64,000 nt of DNA from a bacterium (lineage in GTDB: Bacteria > Cyanobacteriota > Vampirovibrionia > Gastranaerophilales > Gastranaerophilaceae): assembly GCA_017478515.1 (NCBI GenBank), contig JAFVDH010000004.1:172-64171 (forward strand). The letters are read 5' to 3'. Positions 2,573-57,838 of this stretch are shown in pieces. The translations under genes were made by a program, and so were the position numbers. Numbering within the stretch: the stretch's first letter is position 1; each line of letters starts with the position of its first letter. Below the pieces are notes generated by a model. The model searched no databases and was not told the origin of the DNA. It worked only from the letters and a program-made list of their open reading frames with translations.

Positions 2573-3508
2573 ATGAAAAAAATTCTTGTTGTTGCACCTC
2601 AATATGTCGGAGACAGTATTCTTGTTATCCCGTTTTTACGTCAGTTGAGAAAGGCCTATCCTGACAGTTTAATTGATGTCGTTTCTAAAAATGCAGGAAA
2701 ACTTGTTTTAGAGGGTTGTCCATATATTGATAATATCTGTTTAAAAGACGATTTGAAACCAAATTTTTATGAAAAAGCATACATCTTAAAACGTTCGCTT
2801 TCTGCCGCATTACTTGCTAAAAAATTAAAAATAAAAGATACGGTAGGTTTTGGCGGACAATTTAGGGAATTTCTTTTAACAAAAATAGTAAAGTACAAAG
2901 GAACATCAAAACATGAATTGGAACATTTTATGGATGTTTTGCAGGCAGATGATATTGATATAACAGATGAATGCTTGGAATATTGGATAAACGATGCGGA
3001 TGTTGATTTTGTCCAAAAATATTTTACAGAGAATAAAAAGAAAGCTCTTATTGTTACTTCGTCTTCTACTTATGTTAAAAATTGGACTGTTGACGGGTTT
3101 AATGATGTTATAAAGTTTTTAAATGAAAACAACTTTGAATGTTTTATCGTTGGAACTGAAAAAGAAAAAGATTTTAATAATCAGTTTACAGGGGTAAAAA
3201 ATTTATGCGGAGAACTGACTTTTGGTCAAATTTCCGCTCTTATAAGCAAAATGGACTTGGTTTTTGGTATAGATAGCGGATTTTGTCATATGGCATCTGC
3301 TTTTAACAAAAAAACTATTGCACTTTTCGGTTCAACTTCTTTAACTCAGTGGAAATTGTCAGGTCAAAATTCTCATACTCTTTCTTTGAATTTAGCTTGT
3401 TCGCCTTGCAAAAAACCTAAAAAGTGCAAAAATGATTTTAAATGTATGAAAGATTTTTCTTCTCAATTTGTGATAGAATATTTAAAAAATAATGGCTTGG
3501 TTGAATAA
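2573..3508 (+). CDS. Glycosyltransferase family 9 (LPS heptosyltransferase-like)
   Basis: N-terminus KKILVVAPQYVGDSILVIPFLRQLR and C-terminal GxDSGxxHMA are typical GT9. I start at the ATG at 2573 rather than the TTG at 2537. Confidence 0.8.
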   Translation: MKKILVVAPQYVGDSILVIPFLRQLRKAYPDSLIDVVSKNAGKLVLEGCPYIDNICLKDDLKPNFYEKAYILKRSLSAALLAKKLKIKDTVGFGGQFREFLLTKIVKYKGTSKHELEHFMDVLQADDIDITDECLEYWINDADVDFVQKYFTENKKKALIVTSSSTYVKNWTVDGFNDVIKFLNENNFECFIVGTEKEKDFNNQFTGVKNLCGELTFGQISALISKMDLVFGIDSGFCHMASAFNKKTIALFGSTSLTQWKLSGQNSHTLSLNLACSPCKKPKKCKNDFKCMKDFSSQFVIEYLKNNGLVE

Positions 3509-3510
3509 TT

Positions 3511-4209
3511 ATGAAAAAATTTTTCTTAAAAAGTTTGTATAAAAGAATAATAAATATAATCTTTCATCCTTTTTTAGGAATGAATATAAAGCCTATACCG
3601 CTTGTATTAAAGGATACGGACAGATGTTTAATTATTGCTCCTCATCCGGATGATGAAAGCATCGGCTGCGGCGGAATTATGGCTCGTTATCCGAAAAATT
3701 TTAATGTAATTTGTCTTACGCATGGTGACGATGAACGTAAAATCGAATTTGAAAATGCGATGAATTATCTTAATGTTGAACATGAAATTCTAAATCTTAA
3801 AGATAAACATATTTCTGATGGGTATGAAAAATTTTCAAAAATTGATTTTAGCGGTTTTAATTATGTTTTTGTTCCGTATATTTTTGACCAGCATAGTGAC
3901 CATAAGGCTGTGAGTGTTTTGTTAAACAAATATCTGCAAAAAAATAAAATTTCGGATGGGCTTAATATTGTTTTTTATGAAGTTTGGTCTGCAATGAATA
4001 TGCCTAACTATTTTGTTGATATAACTTATGTCGTTGAAAAAAAGAGAGATGCCATAAATTTTCATAAAAGTCAGGTTGATGAAAAAGATTATGCCTCAAA
4101 AATTTTGGGATTAAACATGTACAGAGGAATGCTTACAAATTCAAAGGCAGTCGAATGTTTCACCGTTTTATCCGTTAAAGAATTCAAAAAAGTAATAAAA
4201 GGATTTTAA
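3511..4209 (+). CDS. PIG-L/LmbE family N-acetylglucosaminyl deacetylase
   Basis: Metal-site motifs APHPDDESIGCGG and DQHSDH. Confidence 0.8.
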   Translation: MKKFFLKSLYKRIINIIFHPFLGMNIKPIPLVLKDTDRCLIIAPHPDDESIGCGGIMARYPKNFNVICLTHGDDERKIEFENAMNYLNVEHEILNLKDKHISDGYEKFSKIDFSGFNYVFVPYIFDQHSDHKAVSVLLNKYLQKNKISDGLNIVFYEVWSAMNMPNYFVDITYVVEKKRDAINFHKSQVDEKDYASKILGLNMYRGMLTNSKAVECFTVLSVKEFKKVIKGF

Positions 4210-23234: not shown

Positions 23235-23263
23235 TTGAAAATACTGCGTTTGTGGTGTATAAT
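23235..23263 (+). promoter_or_regulatory. Sigma-70-type promoter TTGAAA-N17-TATAAT with TG extension
   Basis: TTGAAA 23235-23240, 17-nt spacer, TATAAT 23258-23263. About 110 nt upstream of the 23376 ORF. Confidence 0.6.
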
Positions 23264-23375
23264 GTTAACAATTGTAAACAAAATTCCAAAAAGAGTAAAT
23301 TATTTTTTTCAGGACGCTTTAACATAACATAAGAAACAAAACAAAGGTTAGTAAATTAATATAAAGGTAGGAAAA

Positions 23376-23672
23376 ATGAACAATAGAAAATTTAAAATCC
23401 AAGAACAAAAACAAACAAACGTAAGATCACAATTCTTAAATTATGTTCAAGGACAAAATAAAACAAGTGAAGAATATATAGGAATGATAACCTCAGATGC
23501 GGGTTATAGACAAGAATCTGGCATAACTAAGCTTGAAGCGATGGTCAGAGCACAATTAAAACGTGAAATTCCCAATGTTGAAAAATCAGCTTCTTATGAA
23601 TTTCTAGTTGATGCAGTAATGCAAAATTATATGAAAAAACAACTTCAAGCAACAGATGGCGAAATAGCTTAA
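23376..23672 (+). CDS. Hypothetical 98-aa protein
   Basis: ORF with a GGTAGGA RBS, a strong promoter upstream and terminator hairpins downstream. Confidence 0.5.
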   Translation: MNNRKFKIQEQKQTNVRSQFLNYVQGQNKTSEEYIGMITSDAGYRQESGITKLEAMVRAQLKREIPNVEKSASYEFLVDAVMQNYMKKQLQATDGEIA

Positions 23673-33340: not shown

Positions 33341-33571
33341 TTAAGAAATATTGCAAATCTGAAGAATGCTGCCAATACGGAGTTGTGGCGATTTGAAACA
33401 AAAATGTTAACTTTTGTAAATATGAATTTTAAAATGGCTGAAACTCAAGTATAATGCCCTATATGATATGATATGATATGATGGGATGGGGATACTAAAG
33501 TCTTTTGACCATGTTGCCGACATGAAAAGTGTTAGGACAAAGCAATATAGGAAAGTCAAAGGAATAAAACA
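33341..33571 (+). repeat. Upstream cassette copy 1 (homologous to 52794..53016)
   Basis: By-eye alignment. About 90% identity from acttttgtaaatatg (33409) to the ATG, with one 10-bp indel near the RBS. Weaker similarity for ~70 bp further upstream. Confidence 0.85.
33496..33523 (+). promoter_or_regulatory. FliA/sigma-28-like promoter TAAAGTCT-N12-GCCGACAT
   Basis: Compare the consensus TAAAGTTT-N11-GCCGATAA. Lies 48 nt upstream of the ATG at 33572 and is conserved in the second cassette. Confidence 0.45.
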
Positions 33572-34174
33572 ATGGGTATTTCAGCAAATCAGGCAAGATT
33601 AATGACGTTAACAGCAAGACAACATGATTTAGAGTTAAGAGCTCAACAGATTTCTGCAAAAAAAATGGTTCTATCTCTGCAATCTCAACAATTTGCTACT
33701 GCTTATTCCGCTTCATTAAACGAATATAGTCTTATGAAAAATGGCTCTTCTACTGTAGAATATGTAACTGAGACTGAATCTGTGGTAACAGGTTATGAAT
33801 ATGATGGTGTGACTTATTCTGATATAATGGATATTCCTTATAAAACTGTGGTTACCGGTAAAGATGATGATGGTAATGAAATAACTGAAGAGCAGCCAAG
33901 AACTGCTGATGATGAAGGTGTTACAGTTTTGACAGAGGATATTCCTACAGAATATGCTACTCGTAATTATACTGATGAAGAAACGTCAAGTTTCTTGAGT
34001 ATTACTAAGGGCAATTATGATAGTGCAATGACTGCTCTATCGACTCAAGAAAAAATTATGGATATGGAATTAACTCAAATTAATACTGAGCATCAGGCTG
34101 TTAAAACCGAATATGATTCTCTAAAATCATTGATAGGTGATAATGTTGATAAATCATTTAATATTTTCGGATAA
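33572..34174 (+). CDS. Hypothetical 200-aa protein: helical Gln/Leu-rich termini around an acidic Thr/Glu/Asp-rich centre; no signal peptide
   Basis: ORF directly after the cassette, with RBS aaaggaa. Confidence 0.6.
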   Translation: MGISANQARLMTLTARQHDLELRAQQISAKKMVLSLQSQQFATAYSASLNEYSLMKNGSSTVEYVTETESVVTGYEYDGVTYSDIMDIPYKTVVTGKDDDGNEITEEQPRTADDEGVTVLTEDIPTEYATRNYTDEETSSFLSITKGNYDSAMTALSTQEKIMDMELTQINTEHQAVKTEYDSLKSLIGDNVDKSFNIFG

Positions 34175-50253: not shown

Positions 50254-51732
50254 TTATTGATACATAACGTTCAAAAATTCATTGCTAACAGCATCTCTGT
50301 ACCATTTTGCATGGTCTGATGTGTTAAAAATATTGTTATAGTGGCTTGCAACATCGCCGTATGTAGATTTGTTTTCGCCGTATTCCATTAATTCGTGGGT
50401 ATTTTTAGCATATGGAGATGTTGGGAAAATGTCGTGCATCTGCATATAAGACGGCAATCTCCAACCTGCGTCACGATGTCCGTTAAACGCATTTTTAATT
50501 CTTGTTAATCTTTGCTCCAAAGACATTTGGCAATTATCATTATCGTCAGAAATTACAGGCCCTGCTGCGTATTCATCATTCCATGATTGTTTGTCATATT
50601 CATGAAGAATATTGTTAAAGTCGTCGGCTCTTCCCCAGTCGTTGCCTGCTGATAAACCCATTTCTCTGTTTCTTGGGTGCATATCGCATTTTTCGCCTAC
50701 AAGAGCTATGTCATTTCTTCCTGTTTTACTTTTTATTTGTTGAGTAATGTACTGCATTTGTTTGAAATTAGGAACTTCTCCAACTCCGCAGTAATAATGC
50801 ATTTCATGGTTTCCAACGTGCTTTGCACTGTCAAAGAATATTGCGTCAAATCCTAAGTCAACTGCCCAACAGCATGCATCTATAAATGCTTTTTCATGCT
50901 TGTACCAGTTAAAAGGTTCTCCTTTAACGGTCATTTGGCCTGCTGATAGAGGCATTCTGATACCTGTTTTTAATCCTCTTAAGTGAGCCATGTCATTAAA
51001 TGCTTTTACTTGTTCATCGTCACCCATTCTTTGTCCGTCACGGCAAAGCTTATCTGAAGTTAGATTTTTCGAAATTCCTGAATGCAAATCTACAGTATAT
51101 AGTGAAGAACGGCCTGTCTTTCCGTCATTTTCTCTGTTCATTGCAGGATATAATTGTGATAAAACTACGCAATTAGCAAAGCTTTTAGGTGATGGCGGGA
51201 TTGCAGGTAGTAATTTCATTACATTTAATAACCCCTCGCTTTTTTTGTCGCCTTCTGTTAATGCAACGGTTCTCGGGTTAATTTCTATATAATTTGCACG
51301 TCTTCCCCATTTGTCACCATAGTTTGGAGTTTGTATATTATTCGGAATTTCCGGATAATGGTCATTTTTCTTTGTTAATGTGCATATTGACTGAATGGCA
51401 TCCATTGGCGAGCGTTTCAAAAGATTTTCCGGGTTTTCGTTAACCCATTTTTTCCATCCTGTATTACCGCCTTTATATAATGTTTTGTATGTTTCCTGGT
51501 CTTCGTAAACATCATTGTTGCCTTTTAGTATCCAAAACAGTTTCTTGGCAGGGTTTTTATCTCCGTAGTATCCTTTAAAGTTTACTAATTGTTTGTTGTA
51601 ATTTGCAGAAAGTTCCAATGCTGATGCCGAAGTAGGTTTAACTGCTTTTGGTGCAATAGGATTTGAAGTCTTTTTGCTTATTACCGGCATTATGTTTGGC
51701 ATATACAAACTTTGGATTGCAGAAACTTTCAT
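50254..51732 (-). CDS. 492-aa protein with a divergent alpha-amylase-superfamily (GH13-like) core; N-terminus MKVSAIQS, no signal peptide
   Basis: GFDAIFFDSAKHV resembles GH13 region II (GFRxDxxKH). AHLRGLKTGIRMPLS resembles region I context. IALVGEKCD may be region III. The ORF itself is solid; the function call is weak. Confidence 0.45.
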   Translation of the reverse strand: MKVSAIQSLYMPNIMPVISKKTSNPIAPKAVKPTSASALELSANYNKQLVNFKGYYGDKNPAKKLFWILKGNNDVYEDQETYKTLYKGGNTGWKKWVNENPENLLKRSPMDAIQSICTLTKKNDHYPEIPNNIQTPNYGDKWGRRANYIEINPRTVALTEGDKKSEGLLNVMKLLPAIPPSPKSFANCVVLSQLYPAMNRENDGKTGRSSLYTVDLHSGISKNLTSDKLCRDGQRMGDDEQVKAFNDMAHLRGLKTGIRMPLSAGQMTVKGEPFNWYKHEKAFIDACCWAVDLGFDAIFFDSAKHVGNHEMHYYCGVGEVPNFKQMQYITQQIKSKTGRNDIALVGEKCDMHPRNREMGLSAGNDWGRADDFNNILHEYDKQSWNDEYAAGPVISDDNDNCQMSLEQRLTRIKNAFNGHRDAGWRLPSYMQMHDIFPTSPYAKNTHELMEYGENKSTYGDVASHYNNIFNTSDHAKWYRDAVSNEFLNVMYQ

Positions 51733-51769: not shown

Positions 51770-51796
51770 TTTTAGGCGTTTTTTTACAATACTTTA
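51770..51796 (-). promoter_or_regulatory. Weak sigma-28-like match TAAAGTAT-N11-GCCTAAAA upstream of the GH13-like gene
   Basis: -10 element matches 6/8. The downstream leader shares ggcaatataaa with cassette copy 2. Confidence 0.25.
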
Positions 51797-51930
51797 CAGT
51801 TGCTTTTACTCTTTGAAAAAAGCTTTTTTATTTCTTATTTACAACTGATGTGTTTAATATATTGTAAATACAATACTCTGAGAAATCAGGGAAGAGTGGA
51901 AACCTAAAGCCAGCCTTGCTTTGATAACAA

Positions 51931-52695
51931 TTGCTTATGCTGGCAAAATTTGTTGACGTGTTAAATACATCTATTGCAAATGTTGCTCTTAAATATATGG
52001 CAGGAAGTTTCTCTATTTCTGATGATGAAAGTCTTTGGATAGTAACAATTTTTTTTATATCATGCATCGTATTACTTCCTGAAACAAAGTGGTGTTGTAA
52101 AGTTTTTGGCAGAAAGAGGTTCTTTTTATTCTGTTTATATTTCTAAATTGGAACTTACCAGTTTAAGTTCATTTCTTTTGCTTTGGGTTGTTTTGTGTTT
52201 TTAAATTTAAATTTGATGTTTGCGTTTGGAAATGTTATAATTCCTAATTTGATTGTTTGATTGTTCTTTTTGTTATGACTATGATAATTATTCCTACGAT
52301 TACGATTATTTTTTTTTGATTTATCCAATCAAGAAATGGCAAATGCGTCTACTTTACAGAATCTTATTAAAAATGTAGGATGTGCCATCGGAACTTTGTC
52401 TGTATGTGTATTTGTATCTCGATATTCTAAGGTATACCAATCATATCTTGTCGATAAACTCTCTTTGTTAAATGATGCTTTTGTCGGAAAATTTACTGCA
52501 TTAGCAATGAATTTCGCTAAAAACGGAGCTGATTTTATATCTGCTCAAAATATGTCAGGTGCGATGCTTTATAACCAACTTATACAACAGTCGGCTCTTT
52601 GTGCATTTATGCATACTTATATGATTTATGCAATTATTATGCTGATTATTTCTGCTATGGTTTTGATATTAAAAAAAGTTAGGTATGATAATTAA
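51931..52695 (+). pseudogene. Decayed EmrB/QacA-type MFS efflux transporter (N-terminal ~70 aa and C-terminal ~120 aa survive; central TMs lost or scrambled)
   Basis: FVDVLNTSIANVALKYMAGSFSISDDESLWIVT..FGRKRFF matches the EmrB N-terminus. 52336..52695 matches the last TMs. The region between has stops in every frame. Confidence 0.7.
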
Positions 52696-52793
52696 AAAGT
52701 AAACATAATTGTGCATTGACAATGGAAATATTACTTAATACTAAAGAGCGTGTTAATGTTGTCCTGACTTCCAATTCTAAAACAGGAATTTTG

Positions 52794-53016
52794 TTAAGAA
52801 ATGTTACAAACTTGAAAACTGTTGTAAATACTGTAGCACAGCGATTTCTAATAAAATTGTAAACTTTTGTAAATATGGATTTTAAAATGGCTGAAACTCA
52901 GTTATAATCACCTATATGATATGATATGATATGATGGGATGGGGAGTACTAAAGCTTTTTGACCATATTGCCGACATGAAAAGTGTTAGGAATAAGGCAA
53001 TATAAAGGAGAAAACA
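52794..53016 (+). repeat. Upstream cassette copy 2 (homologous to 33341..33571)
   Basis: See copy 1. TATAAT at 52903-52908, pentamer tract at 52915-52944. Confidence 0.85.
52950..52977 (+). promoter_or_regulatory. FliA/sigma-28-like promoter TAAAGCTT-N12-GCCGACAT
   Basis: Same geometry as 33496..33523. Lies 39 nt upstream of the ATG at 53017. Confidence 0.45.
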
Positions 53017-54162
53017 ATGACTTTAGTATCAAAAATGATGAATGTTCGTGAAAATGTGGTTTTAGGTAGTCTTAATTTAAAAAACACTCCAATAAATAAT
53101 CAACCAGCTACTACAAATACATCCGAAACACCTCAATCAAAAGATGATGTTGATTTAGTAGTTATAACAGGAAAAGACGATAATATAGAAGGAGCTTTAG
53201 GAAATTTATTATCAAATAATGATTCTCTTATAGACAGAATTGCATCAAAATTGAATGGGCTTTTTGGAGCTGAAAAAGCTGAAAAACAAGATCGTGGTAC
53301 AGAAGCTGTTAGAGATTATCAAGTCTTAACCGATGAACAACTTGCAGCAGAAATGGAAGAATTACTTAAAAAGAAAGCTGACATAAAACAACAAATTGCT
53401 GAATGTAAAGCAGATACTAGTATTCCATATTCAAGGAACCTAAAAGCAATTGATTTAGAAAAACAATTGAACCAAATAGAAACAGAGATAAAAGCGTGTG
53501 AAGAAGAAATGAATAGAAGAAGCAACTCTTCAAACTCTTCATCTCCGTCAGGTCTACAAAACCTTTCTAATTCTTCGGAGTTAGTAGTTGAAACAGGACA
53601 TTGGAAAAATCTTAGTGTATCTGAGCTTATTCAAGAATATAAAGAACAAGTCCAAGCTAAGCTAAAAGACTTACAAAGACAACTTGATGAAGCTAAAACT
53701 GCCAAAAGTGAAGCGGAAAGTAATGGATTATCAACAAAGTTAACAATGATTATTAATGCTAAGATAGCTGTATTAACTGCAAAAATAAATAGTTATAGTG
53801 GTATAATTCAACAATATAACAGTGAATTAGAAAGAAGAGGTTCGAATATACGTATTCAAGACGATGGAAGTATAATGGGAACACTTGAAAACAGTAATAA
53901 GCCTGAATTGAATAATGATATGAAAAATTTAAGTCCTCTATGTTCTATGTCTACAGATGAGCTTAAATCAAAACATGAAGAATTAGTTAAAAAGCAAGAA
54001 GAATTGGAAAAACAACTTGATGCTGCTAAATCTAAAATTAGTAATAATGCAAAAGAAAATGTACTTAATCATTTTGAAATACATAATTTAACAAAGCAAT
54101 TAGAACATATAAAAACTGAAATAAAAGAAATAGAAGATGAACTTGCAAGAAGAGACTCTTAA
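53017..54162 (+). CDS. 381-aa coiled-coil protein with three ~70-80-aa internal repeats, FlxA-like in composition; no signal peptide
   Basis: Repeats start near YQVLTDEQL, WKNLSVSEL and LCSMSTDEL. Each ends in ..E(M/L)xRR(S/G/D)S. AAGGAG RBS. Confidence 0.6.
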   Translation: MTLVSKMMNVRENVVLGSLNLKNTPINNQPATTNTSETPQSKDDVDLVVITGKDDNIEGALGNLLSNNDSLIDRIASKLNGLFGAEKAEKQDRGTEAVRDYQVLTDEQLAAEMEELLKKKADIKQQIAECKADTSIPYSRNLKAIDLEKQLNQIETEIKACEEEMNRRSNSSNSSSPSGLQNLSNSSELVVETGHWKNLSVSELIQEYKEQVQAKLKDLQRQLDEAKTAKSEAESNGLSTKLTMIINAKIAVLTAKINSYSGIIQQYNSELERRGSNIRIQDDGSIMGTLENSNKPELNNDMKNLSPLCSMSTDELKSKHEELVKKQEELEKQLDAAKSKISNNAKENVLNHFEIHNLTKQLEHIKTEIKEIEDELARRDS

Positions 54163-57594: not shown

Positions 57595-57756
57595 TTATCC
57601 GATAAAGCCTCCGCCTGCGTTAGAAAGGCCTTTAGTTTTCTTTTCTTCAATTTCAGGCTTTTTATCAGTTTCTACCTTTGGATTAATAGGTGCTTTATCT
57701 TCTTCTTTTTTTATTTGAGGTTTTACCTGTGGAAGATTGCCGCTAATGCTACTCAT
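57595..57756 (-). CDS. Unlisted 53-codon ORF: MSSISGNLPQVKPQIKKEEDKAPINPKVETDKKPEIEEKKTKGLSNAGGGFIG
   Basis: Strong RBS (gaaaggag, 7 nt before the ATG), a sigma-28-like promoter upstream and a terminator downstream. Below the ORF-track length cut-off. The overlapping + strand ORF 57592..57831 starts with TTG and is low-complexity. Confidence 0.45.
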   Translation of the reverse strand: MSSISGNLPQVKPQIKKEEDKAPINPKVETDKKPEIEEKKTKGLSNAGGGFIG

Positions 57757-57810: not shown

Positions 57811-57838
57811 TTAACGGCAAAAATCTTTTAAATCTTTA
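57811..57838 (-). promoter_or_regulatory. FliA/sigma-28-like promoter TAAAGATT-N12-GCCGTTAA
   Basis: Reverse complement of 57811-57838. Same -35/-10 spacing as the two cassette promoters. 54-nt leader to the 53-codon ORF. Confidence 0.35.

Follow-up and report, generated by a model that had tools for sequence, protein, structure and literature searches.

The HLR1 motif, the binding site of the response regulator RpaB, consists of two 8-nt direct repeats, (G/T)TTACA(T/A)(T/A), that are 2 nt apart (PMC6525291, PMC13421787). In RpaB-activated promoters of Synechocystis, HLR1 is centered at approximately -51, with a range of -66 to -45 (PMC6525291, PMC13421787); HLR1 sites that lie over the start, that is, from -38 to +23, are found in RpaB-repressed promoters (PMC6525291). 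In Synechocystis, the motif occurs on either strand. The genes rpaA, rpaB and nblS are reported in all orders of the Melainabacteria (PMC4040986, PMC5877343). We found no paper on the targets of RpaB/NblS in the Melainabacteria. For a second type of promoter, that recognized by sigma-28 (FliA/SigD), the consensus of late flagellar genes is TAAA-N15-GCCGATAA. Here we describe a cassette that combines sequences of both kinds in a 64-kb stretch of DNA from a bacterium of the Gastranaerophilaceae (contig JAFVDH010000004.1; hereafter, the window), where one copy (copy A) precedes gene A and another (copy B) precedes gene B (Table 1). In our favored interpretation, to which we assign a probability of roughly 60%, both genes have tandem RpaB-type and FliA-type promoters, these promoters belong to a clade-wide cassette, and copy B is an old duplicate.

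The upstream regions of the two genes are alike up to their start codons: 33409-33571 (copy A) and 52862-53016 (copy B) share 142 identities in 165 alignment columns (92.8% of the ungapped columns, 86% of all columns), which bears out the approximately 90% identity estimated in an initial annotation of the window; in the core (33405-33541 vs 52858-52995), 126 of 138 positions are identical. The weaker likeness (approximately 65%) that the annotation had noticed over the next ~70 bp upstream is measured at 67.6% (46/68, gap-free, 33341-33408 vs 52794-52861), as compared with 46.8 +/- 4.7% for random 68-mers of the window. The annotation was also right about the order of the elements in each copy, and right that an indel is located by the ribosome binding site; the indel there is 9 bp instead of the 10 bp it gave, and a separate 1-bp indel is located 3' of a G-rich tract. 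Past the start codons the likeness is lost (48% of the columns over the following 100 nt), nor are the two proteins related: their best BLASTP alignment, over 8 residues, has E = 0.10. As previously proposed, this is a copied regulatory module and not a gene duplication. The window has exactly two occurrences of the 31-nt pentamer/G tract and two of the 42-nt sigma-28 block, and neither block occurs in any of 100 shuffles; a profile search based on the family described below (nhmmer) found no third full copy in the window.

Copy B appears to be an old duplicate of a gene-A-type cassette that was copied onto a species-specific orphan gene, because it is equally close to the cassette of a gene-A homolog from another species (locus L002; core identity 0.90, distal 0.78) and to copy A (core 0.91, distal 0.67); recent copying is not supported. 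The last 38 nt of copy B are its own. In a small sample of strain-level contigs that span the gene-B tract, the cassette is identical, with four pentamers as in the window. Two gene-B contigs from public metagenomes (L126 and L127) begin at position 1 inside the cassette; the repeat apparently breaks assemblies.

The cassette is not confined to the window. We scanned one genome per GTDB species with the pattern TATAATNNNCTATATGATATGATAT and obtained at least 116 stretches that match it exactly; among the matches listed, nearly all of the records are labeled Gastranaerophilales, Melainabacteria or Cyanobacteria. The copies per assembly, all lower bounds, are at least nine in one metagenome-assembled genome, followed by at least five, five, four and four, and so on. 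Because this pattern itself contained TATAAT, the analysis was repeated on a second sample, 71 non-redundant metagenome copies picked by the pentamers and the G tract alone. In 104 of the 121 genome copies that were read, TATAAT is located 95-160 nt upstream of an open reading frame (ORF) that has a Shine-Dalgarno (SD) sequence and is on the same strand; together with the lack of terminal inverted repeats common to the two window copies, this upholds the earlier view of a promoter context as opposed to a miniature inverted-repeat transposable element (MITE). The downstream ORFs are diverse: 111 of them fall into 79 BLAST clusters, 61 of which are singletons, and approximately 85% of the 105 that were scanned with Pfam have no domain, the exceptions being EF-hand (7), LysM (5), the type IV pilin N-methylation motif (4), DnaK (1) and LemA (1). 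Gene-A homologs in other metagenome contigs (L002, L001) share the same upstream sequence, and the single match among 2.9 million viral contigs is an ordinary family member. The element is, then, a promoter-and-leader cassette that is reused before many unrelated, mostly orphan, fast-evolving genes of gut Melainabacteria. The initial annotation had deduced tight co-regulation of just two proteins and had suggested a search of related genomes; that search did find more copies that precede ORFs, and it showed that the two copies are not a private pair. Given a clade-wide family (at least 116 plus 71 copies and at least 79 unrelated protein clusters), membership of a larger regulon is therefore implied, not pairwise co-regulation.

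Several members of the family deserve separate mention. A few of the listed cassettes carry the labels Muribaculaceae, Methanomethylophilaceae or Methanobacteriaceae (L010, L027, L060, L046, L025, L026, L034, L066, L068, L082, L085, L091); these contigs have 27-37% GC, the same as the Gastranaerophilales loci, and the labels are probably wrong or the contigs mis-binned. At L075:4989-7085, a cassette is located 254 nt upstream of dnaK; no other downstream ORF is a clear housekeeping gene, and so long a distance suggests a small ORF that was not recognized or a longer leader. Degenerate cassettes (L100:2925-2990, L100:4176-4262, L013:6783-6835) have one pentamer, mutated pentamers or none; therefore, the promoter part can persist without the pentamer tract.

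Conservation in the family extends from approximately -46 to approximately +45, counted from the first T of TATAAT. At its upstream end the consensus is AATTGTAACgAAATGTAAA, the opposite strand of which reads TTTACATT-TC-GTTACAAT, a match to HLR1 at all 16 specified positions; thus, the 'TTGTAAA-containing region' that had been recorded as an anonymous element is an HLR1/RpaB box read from the other strand. When 117 copies are compared with KTTACAWW-N2-KTTACAWW, 68 have no mismatch, 20 have one and 25 have two; random 50-mers of the same loci are perfect in 0.09% of cases. The metagenome copies, which were picked independently of this region, behave similarly (no, one and two mismatches in 25, 19 and 17 copies, that is, at most two in 61/71). 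The position is fixed as well: the left end of the box is at -47/-46 from TATAAT, so its center is at approximately -50.5 if the start is taken as 7 nt after TATAAT.

The family consensus reads AATTGTAACgAAATGTAAAtaTGAATTTaAAAAaGGCTgAAACCCAGT-TATAAT-GCC-CTA as far as the pentamer tract. There is hardly any variation in the spacer, GGCTsAAAyCCAGT, where C is present at -12 in 95% of the copies and AAA at -9..-7 in 97-100%; in the metagenome copies the -10 hexamer is TATAAT (41), TATACT (10), CATAAT (4) or a form shifted by one base (13). In the tract that follows, (TATGA)n, 79 of the 121 genome copies have four units (65%; range 2-11), as do 57 of the 71 metagenome copies, a sample in which only n >= 4 could be detected. 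The pentamers then pass into TGTGG-TGGGG-CGGGG in the family and TGGGA-TGGGG in the window copies; over approximately seven units, the first base of the pentamer stays T and the fourth stays G (T1 and G4).

The clade encodes a protein that could recognize such a box. The ORF at L030:4236-5021 (minus strand) scores 355 bits against the NCBIfam RpaB equivalog model NF045944 (cut-off 330), and it shares 86-96% identity with its 120 closest protein-database clusters, which come from gut and other metagenomes. We propose that the common part of the cassette, which extends over approximately -60 to +45, is a sigma-70-type promoter with a consensus -10 and an upstream HLR1 at the RpaB activation position, that this OmpR-family response regulator drives it, and that the transcript starts at or beside the (UAUGA)n/G tract; each gene would then have its own output segment downstream of the common part.

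Additional HLR1-like sites and neighbors were seen. In L030:3124-5021, rpaB is approximately 0.5 kb beyond a cassette-controlled gene for a 146-aa protein (3252-3689), with a tRNA between them. In the window, TTTACAATACTTTACAGT (51783-51800, plus strand; one mismatch) is upstream of the minus-strand ORF 50254-51732 (492 aa, no family); 3' of this box on the minus strand is GCCTAAAAC...TATAAAT, which resembles the cassette spacer and -10, with no pentamer tract and a box-to-hexamer distance that is 8 bp shorter than in the cassette. A further site, TTTACAATTGTTAACATT (23261-23278, minus strand; one mismatch), has the same inverted orientation and is approximately 106 nt upstream of a 98-aa ORF (23376-23672).

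The output segment of the window genes would be a FliA (sigma-28) promoter 46 bp downstream; in this arrangement the promoters are in tandem and, therefore, both window genes would be wired to two regulatory inputs. A sigma-28 consensus after the G tract defines what we term class 1, to which both window copies belong; among the 121 genome copies it has 19-22 members, depending on the count and the pattern used, and among the 71 metagenome copies it has 4. The -35/-10 pair that the initial annotation called sigma-28-like is a very good match, with a spacing of N12, one base over the textbook N11. Distant gene-A homologs (L003, L007, L005) retain the upstream boxes together with a perfect sigma-28 promoter, TAAAGTTT-N12-GCCGATAA, the rest of the cassette being gone. 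A flagellin gene of the clade, which lacks the cassette, is preceded by TAAAGTTT-N11-GTCGTTAA; this supports the motif as the local FliA promoter. Elsewhere in the window (57812-57838, minus strand), another sigma-28-like site, TAAAGATT...GCCGTTA, with one mismatch to a loose pattern, is upstream of a 53-aa Lys/Glu-rich ORF (57595-57756, minus strand).

Several observations weigh against tandem RpaB-type and FliA-type promoters. The -50.5 position depends on the -10 hexamer, that is, on a predicted start, and in all copies HLR1 and the gene are on opposite strands. The window itself yielded no RpaB, and only one ortholog was found in approximately 1.45 Mb of sampled sequence. Also, HLR1 does not account for the conserved spacer, the -10, the pentamers and the G tract, so at least one further factor is implied. 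As for the second promoter, TAAA-N16 in the window is one base over the textbook consensus, fliA was found neither in the sampled ~1.45 Mb nor in the window (the sigma factor in L064 is RpoD-like), and, according to the literature, flagella are present in only some Gastranaerophilales, some members being without complete flagella.

The likeness to HLR1 could be a coincidence, with another transcription factor or an UP-like A/T element using the TGTAAC/TGTAAA repeats; we regard this as possible, though clearly a minority view. In its favor, the boxes are A/T-rich in a genome with 32% GC and invariably point against the gene, we recognized the match post hoc, and the clade has a second OmpR-family regulator (L113; 211 bits against the RpaB model, under the cut-off). 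What a coincidence does not readily explain is that the consensus satisfies 16 of 16 specified positions at one fixed site equal to the known activation distance, and does so in the sister group of the organisms in which HLR1 was defined, with a highly conserved RpaB.

A second alternative, to which we give similar, limited credence, is that the conserved 5' tract acts mainly as RNA: a single-stranded platform with a 5-nt period (TRAP-like) or a ribosome standby site, which controls translation via a hairpin that sequesters the SD. The persistence of T1 and G4 over approximately seven units is in accord with this possibility, as is the change of repeat number in steps of 5 with the module kept, which would be expected of a repeated binding unit more than of a fixed DNA spacer. 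Pairing data come from the majority of the family (class 2), in which the G tract is followed by GCAAT, approximately 18 variable bases, TTTATAnAnATGTAGG, and then GAAAGGAG and ATG. Where a sigma-28 promoter is lacking (85 copies), the 28 nt 3' of the G tract pair specifically with the SD region of their own leader at -8.24 kcal/mol, as compared with -6.18 +/- 0.22 kcal/mol for permuted partners (0/2000 permutations as low). Part of the signal is compositional, as reversed-sequence controls show (-6.8 and -7.0), but the true orientation still surpasses them (p = 8e-4 and 2.5e-3). In class 2 the SD is unpaired with a probability of 0.34, against 0.49 for control genes (p = 4e-6); the value rises to 0.68 when the last 45 nt are folded alone. 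These data give moderate support to an SD-sequestering hairpin in class 2 leaders. For such pairing the variable segment would have to be transcribed, and this favors a start 5' of it. All classes have an ATGT(A/T)AGG-like sequence 3' of the -10-like element, so a proximal promoter is possible in class 2 also.

These leader data speak less for the window copies. Class 1 has no specific pairing between the anti-SD segment and the SD (-6.56 vs -6.03 +/- 0.43; 212/2000 permutations as low), its SD accessibility is normal (0.56), and the two window leaders are no more stably folded than shuffled sequences (z = -1.3 and -1.8). Because the register of the helix shifts, RNAalifold found no consensus structure when 53 leaders were aligned with MAFFT, and the partner-permutation and reversed-sequence tests were used in its place. 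No specific pairing was detected between the G tract and the anti-SD, the G tract and the SD, or the pentamers and the middle region; the tract has no covariation, and no candidate binding protein was identified. In a third, small class, the cassette is ahead of type IV pilin genes (L016, L057, L062, L079, L081, L111): the G tract is followed by TGTACA-17-TATAAT and, 6 nt on, by GTG AAG ATT TTG AAA AAT AGA GCC TTT ACA CTT, a type IV prepilin start without an SD, which suggests a leaderless mRNA from a second promoter.

The third alternative, which we judge unlikely, is that the pentamers act as DNA: extended -10-like elements (TGnTATGAT) in tandem, with GGG(A) behind them, would hold sigma-70 RNA polymerase in a pause close to the promoter, as at lambda PR', where a spacer-bound factor or an ops-like NusG paralog could be loaded. 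TATGAT agrees with TATAAT at 5/6 positions, TGn precedes each unit, and GGGA follows the last unit in both window copies; a promoter scan reports CTGAAA-18-TATGAT as a promoter-like site. The Q binding element of lambda is located in the spacer directly upstream of the -10, and the 14 nt of spacer in that place are nearly invariant in the cassette. This analogy is weakened by the absence of a terminator-like hairpin downstream, by target genes that are short and apparently monocistronic, and by the occurrence of GTGG, rather than GGGA, after the last unit in most copies; no Q-like or specialized NusG gene was seen, although no search was aimed at them.

For the pentamer/G tract itself we rank, with low confidence, an RNA-level protein-binding platform or ribosome standby site first, sigma-dependent DNA pausing second, and slippage third. 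The last of these, a contingency repeat that switches expression by slipped-strand variation, has perfect tandem units and an n of 2-11 between loci in its favor; it is very improbable because n = 4 dominates in both samples, and the strain contigs over the gene-B tract, a small sample, agree with the window in n, and 20 bp is short for frequent slippage. Least probable of all, to the point that we set it aside, is a mobile repeat (MITE-like or the end of an insertion element) that carries promoters: the cassette is multi-copy, breaks assemblies and was duplicated to a new gene in the case of copy B, but it has no shared terminal inverted repeats, its flanks are unrelated, its orientation and distance to an ORF are kept in 104/121 copies, its 3' part mostly pairs with the SD of that gene, and viral contigs yielded only one match.

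Other candidates were considered and rejected. The G runs cannot supply the four tracts with loops that are required for a G-quadruplex. The peptides of a small upstream ORF (MNFKMAETQV) and of mini-ORFs in the pentamer tract are not conserved between the copies, and sigma-54 and NtcA/CRP-type sites do not fit the sequence. The GGA-rich leader of the initial annotation is not a family feature: there is no CsrA-type enrichment in the class of the window copies (2.66 GGA per 100 nt vs 2.10 in controls), copies A and B have three and two GGA, respectively, with the SD included, and csrA was not found in the sampled DNA. CsrA-controlled flagellar leaders of the hag type have at least two GGA sites, typically in the loops of hairpins, one of which overlaps the SD. 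The annotation was correct that the composite is undescribed: neither the window nor any of 18 loci gave a match to an Rfam covariance model at the gathering score (the sole match with E <= 10 is a chance long non-coding RNA), and our literature search on the repeat sequence and on RNA motifs or promoters in Melainabacteria returned nothing relevant.

Table 1. Positions of the cassette elements and of the genes that follow them in the window.
Feature	Position	Strand	Remarks
Copy A distal upstream region, degenerate HLR1-like half-sites	33341..33402	+	67.6% vs 52794-52861; conserved also in L002
Copy A proximal HLR1-like box TTTACAAA-AG-TTAACATT	33403..33420	-	1 mismatch to KTTACAWW-N2-KTTACAWW; center ~-50.5 from predicted start
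Copy A sigma-70-type core promoter (predicted), TTTAAA, 16-nt conserved spacer (..GGCTGAAACTCAAG), TATAAT 33450-33455	33428..33455	+	promoter scan
Copy A predicted transcription start	near 33461-33463	+	from the -10
Copy A pentamer tract (TATGA)x4	33462..33481	+	
Copy A G-rich tract TGGGATGGGGA	33482..33492	+	5-nt period carried on
Copy A sigma-28 (FliA)-type promoter TAAAGTCT-N12-GCCGACAT	33496..33523	+	consensus match
Copy A proximal leader	33524..33571	+	SD AAAGGAA (~33558-33564)
Gene A	33572..34174	+	200-aa helical-hairpin protein, conserved ends, hypervariable middle
Copy B distal region, more HLR1-like repeats	52794..52855	+	52793-52810 with 2 mismatches; 52808-52830 directly repeats the region of the proximal box
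Copy B proximal HLR1 box TTTACAAA-AG-TTTACAAT	52856..52873	-	0 mismatches; center ~-50.5
Copy B core promoter (predicted), TTTAAA-16-TATAAT, TATAAT 52903-52908	52881..52908	+	promoter scan
Copy B predicted transcription start	near 52914-52916	+	from the -10
Copy B pentamer tract (TATGA)x4	52915..52934	+	
Copy B G-rich tract TGGGATGGGGA	52935..52945	+	
Copy B sigma-28-type promoter TAAAGCTT-N12-GCCGACAT	52950..52977	+	consensus match
Copy B proximal leader	52978..53016	+	SD AAAGGAG (53005-53011)
Gene B	53017..54162	+	381-aa coiled-coil orphan, this species only

The gene-A family has more than 120 members from metagenomes (P0001-P0120 among those listed), proteins with lengths of 113-348 aa in which N- and C-terminal segments of approximately 50 residues are nearly invariant and the middle is hypervariable. 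An AlphaFold model of gene A (pLDDT 81) is a long generic helical hairpin with a beta insert at its tip; the protein has no Pfam or NCBIfam family, no sequence match in the PDB and no Foldseek match with E < 1e-3. The layout of the family is flagellin-like, yet the protein is a simple helical hairpin. Gene B is represented by one cluster at 99% identity and by nothing further among 5.8 billion proteins. Directly upstream of copy B, a 119-aa ORF (52336-52695) matches only the last ~100 residues of EmrB-type MFS transporters and is probably a gene remnant.

The RpaB/NblS system is kept in the Melainabacteria despite their lack of photosynthesis, and the cassette suggests what RpaB controls there; with a conserved HLR1 at the activation distance before a recognizable set of genes, the question of RpaB targets becomes directly testable. 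If tandem RpaB-type and FliA-type promoters are the correct explanation, the code for recognition of DNA by RpaB would be older than the divergence of the non-photosynthetic from the photosynthetic cyanobacterial lineages; its targets, whether ancestral or re-purposed, would mostly be orphan genes, some of them for pilin, EF-hand or LysM proteins. A more speculative extension, which we consider rather doubtful, is that the cassette represents an RpaB regulon of the Melainabacteria with a second layer, in which an oligomeric RNA-binding regulator would read the UAUGA/G-rich 5' tract and gate the translation of fast-evolving surface, secreted or motility-associated proteins. The cassette is in any case a practical marker for co-regulated orphan genes in gut and rumen Gastranaerophilales.

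Among described systems, the TRAP-regulated trp leaders of Bacillus have 9-11 (G/U)AG triplets with spacers of 2-3 nt, and binding alters the accessibility of the SD. The cassette is similar in its 5-nt-periodic 5' leader repeat and, in most family members, a putative SD-sequestering hairpin; it differs in its unit (UAUGA/UGGGG, approximately seven units) and in having no terminator, and no TRAP homolog was seen, none having been sought. Lambda PR' has a sigma-dependent promoter-proximal pause with a Q binding element. The cassette likewise has -10-like hexamers and then GGG in the initial transcribed region as well as a conserved promoter spacer, but it is chromosomal and multi-copy, with no terminator to read through; no Q gene was seen, and none was sought. 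The Correia elements of Neisseria are promoter-bearing intergenic repeats and, like the cassette, are multi-copy intergenic sequences that give promoters to unrelated genes; the cassette differs in its lack of inverted repeats, its strict orientation and distance to the start codon, and its gene-specific 3' parts.

The two closest systems are those with which the favored explanation is built, and both promoters are of known kinds. The likeness to FliA/SigD promoters is in TAAAGTCT...GCCGACAT, present in both copies and, in related form, before gene-A homologs and the clade flagellin gene; here, the spacer has one additional base, the genes are not known to be flagellar, and the sequence is inside a larger cassette behind another promoter. 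With the cyanobacterial HLR1/RpaB promoters (e.g., psaAB and hliB), the cassette shares the 18-bp direct repeat, its center approximately 50 nt upstream of the (predicted) start, and an RpaB ortholog in the lineage. The host, in contrast, is non-photosynthetic, photosynthesis genes give way as targets to those for orphan, pilin, EF-hand and LysM proteins, and the box, a candidate site by sequence, is always inverted and is contained within a cassette of approximately 110 bp together with a conserved spacer, the -10 and the first ~40 transcribed bases as counted from the predicted start. What appears to be unreported is the occurrence of HLR1/RpaB and FliA promoters in Melainabacteria, their fixed composite with a spacer and a 5-nt-periodic leader, and the reuse of this composite before dozens of orphan genes.

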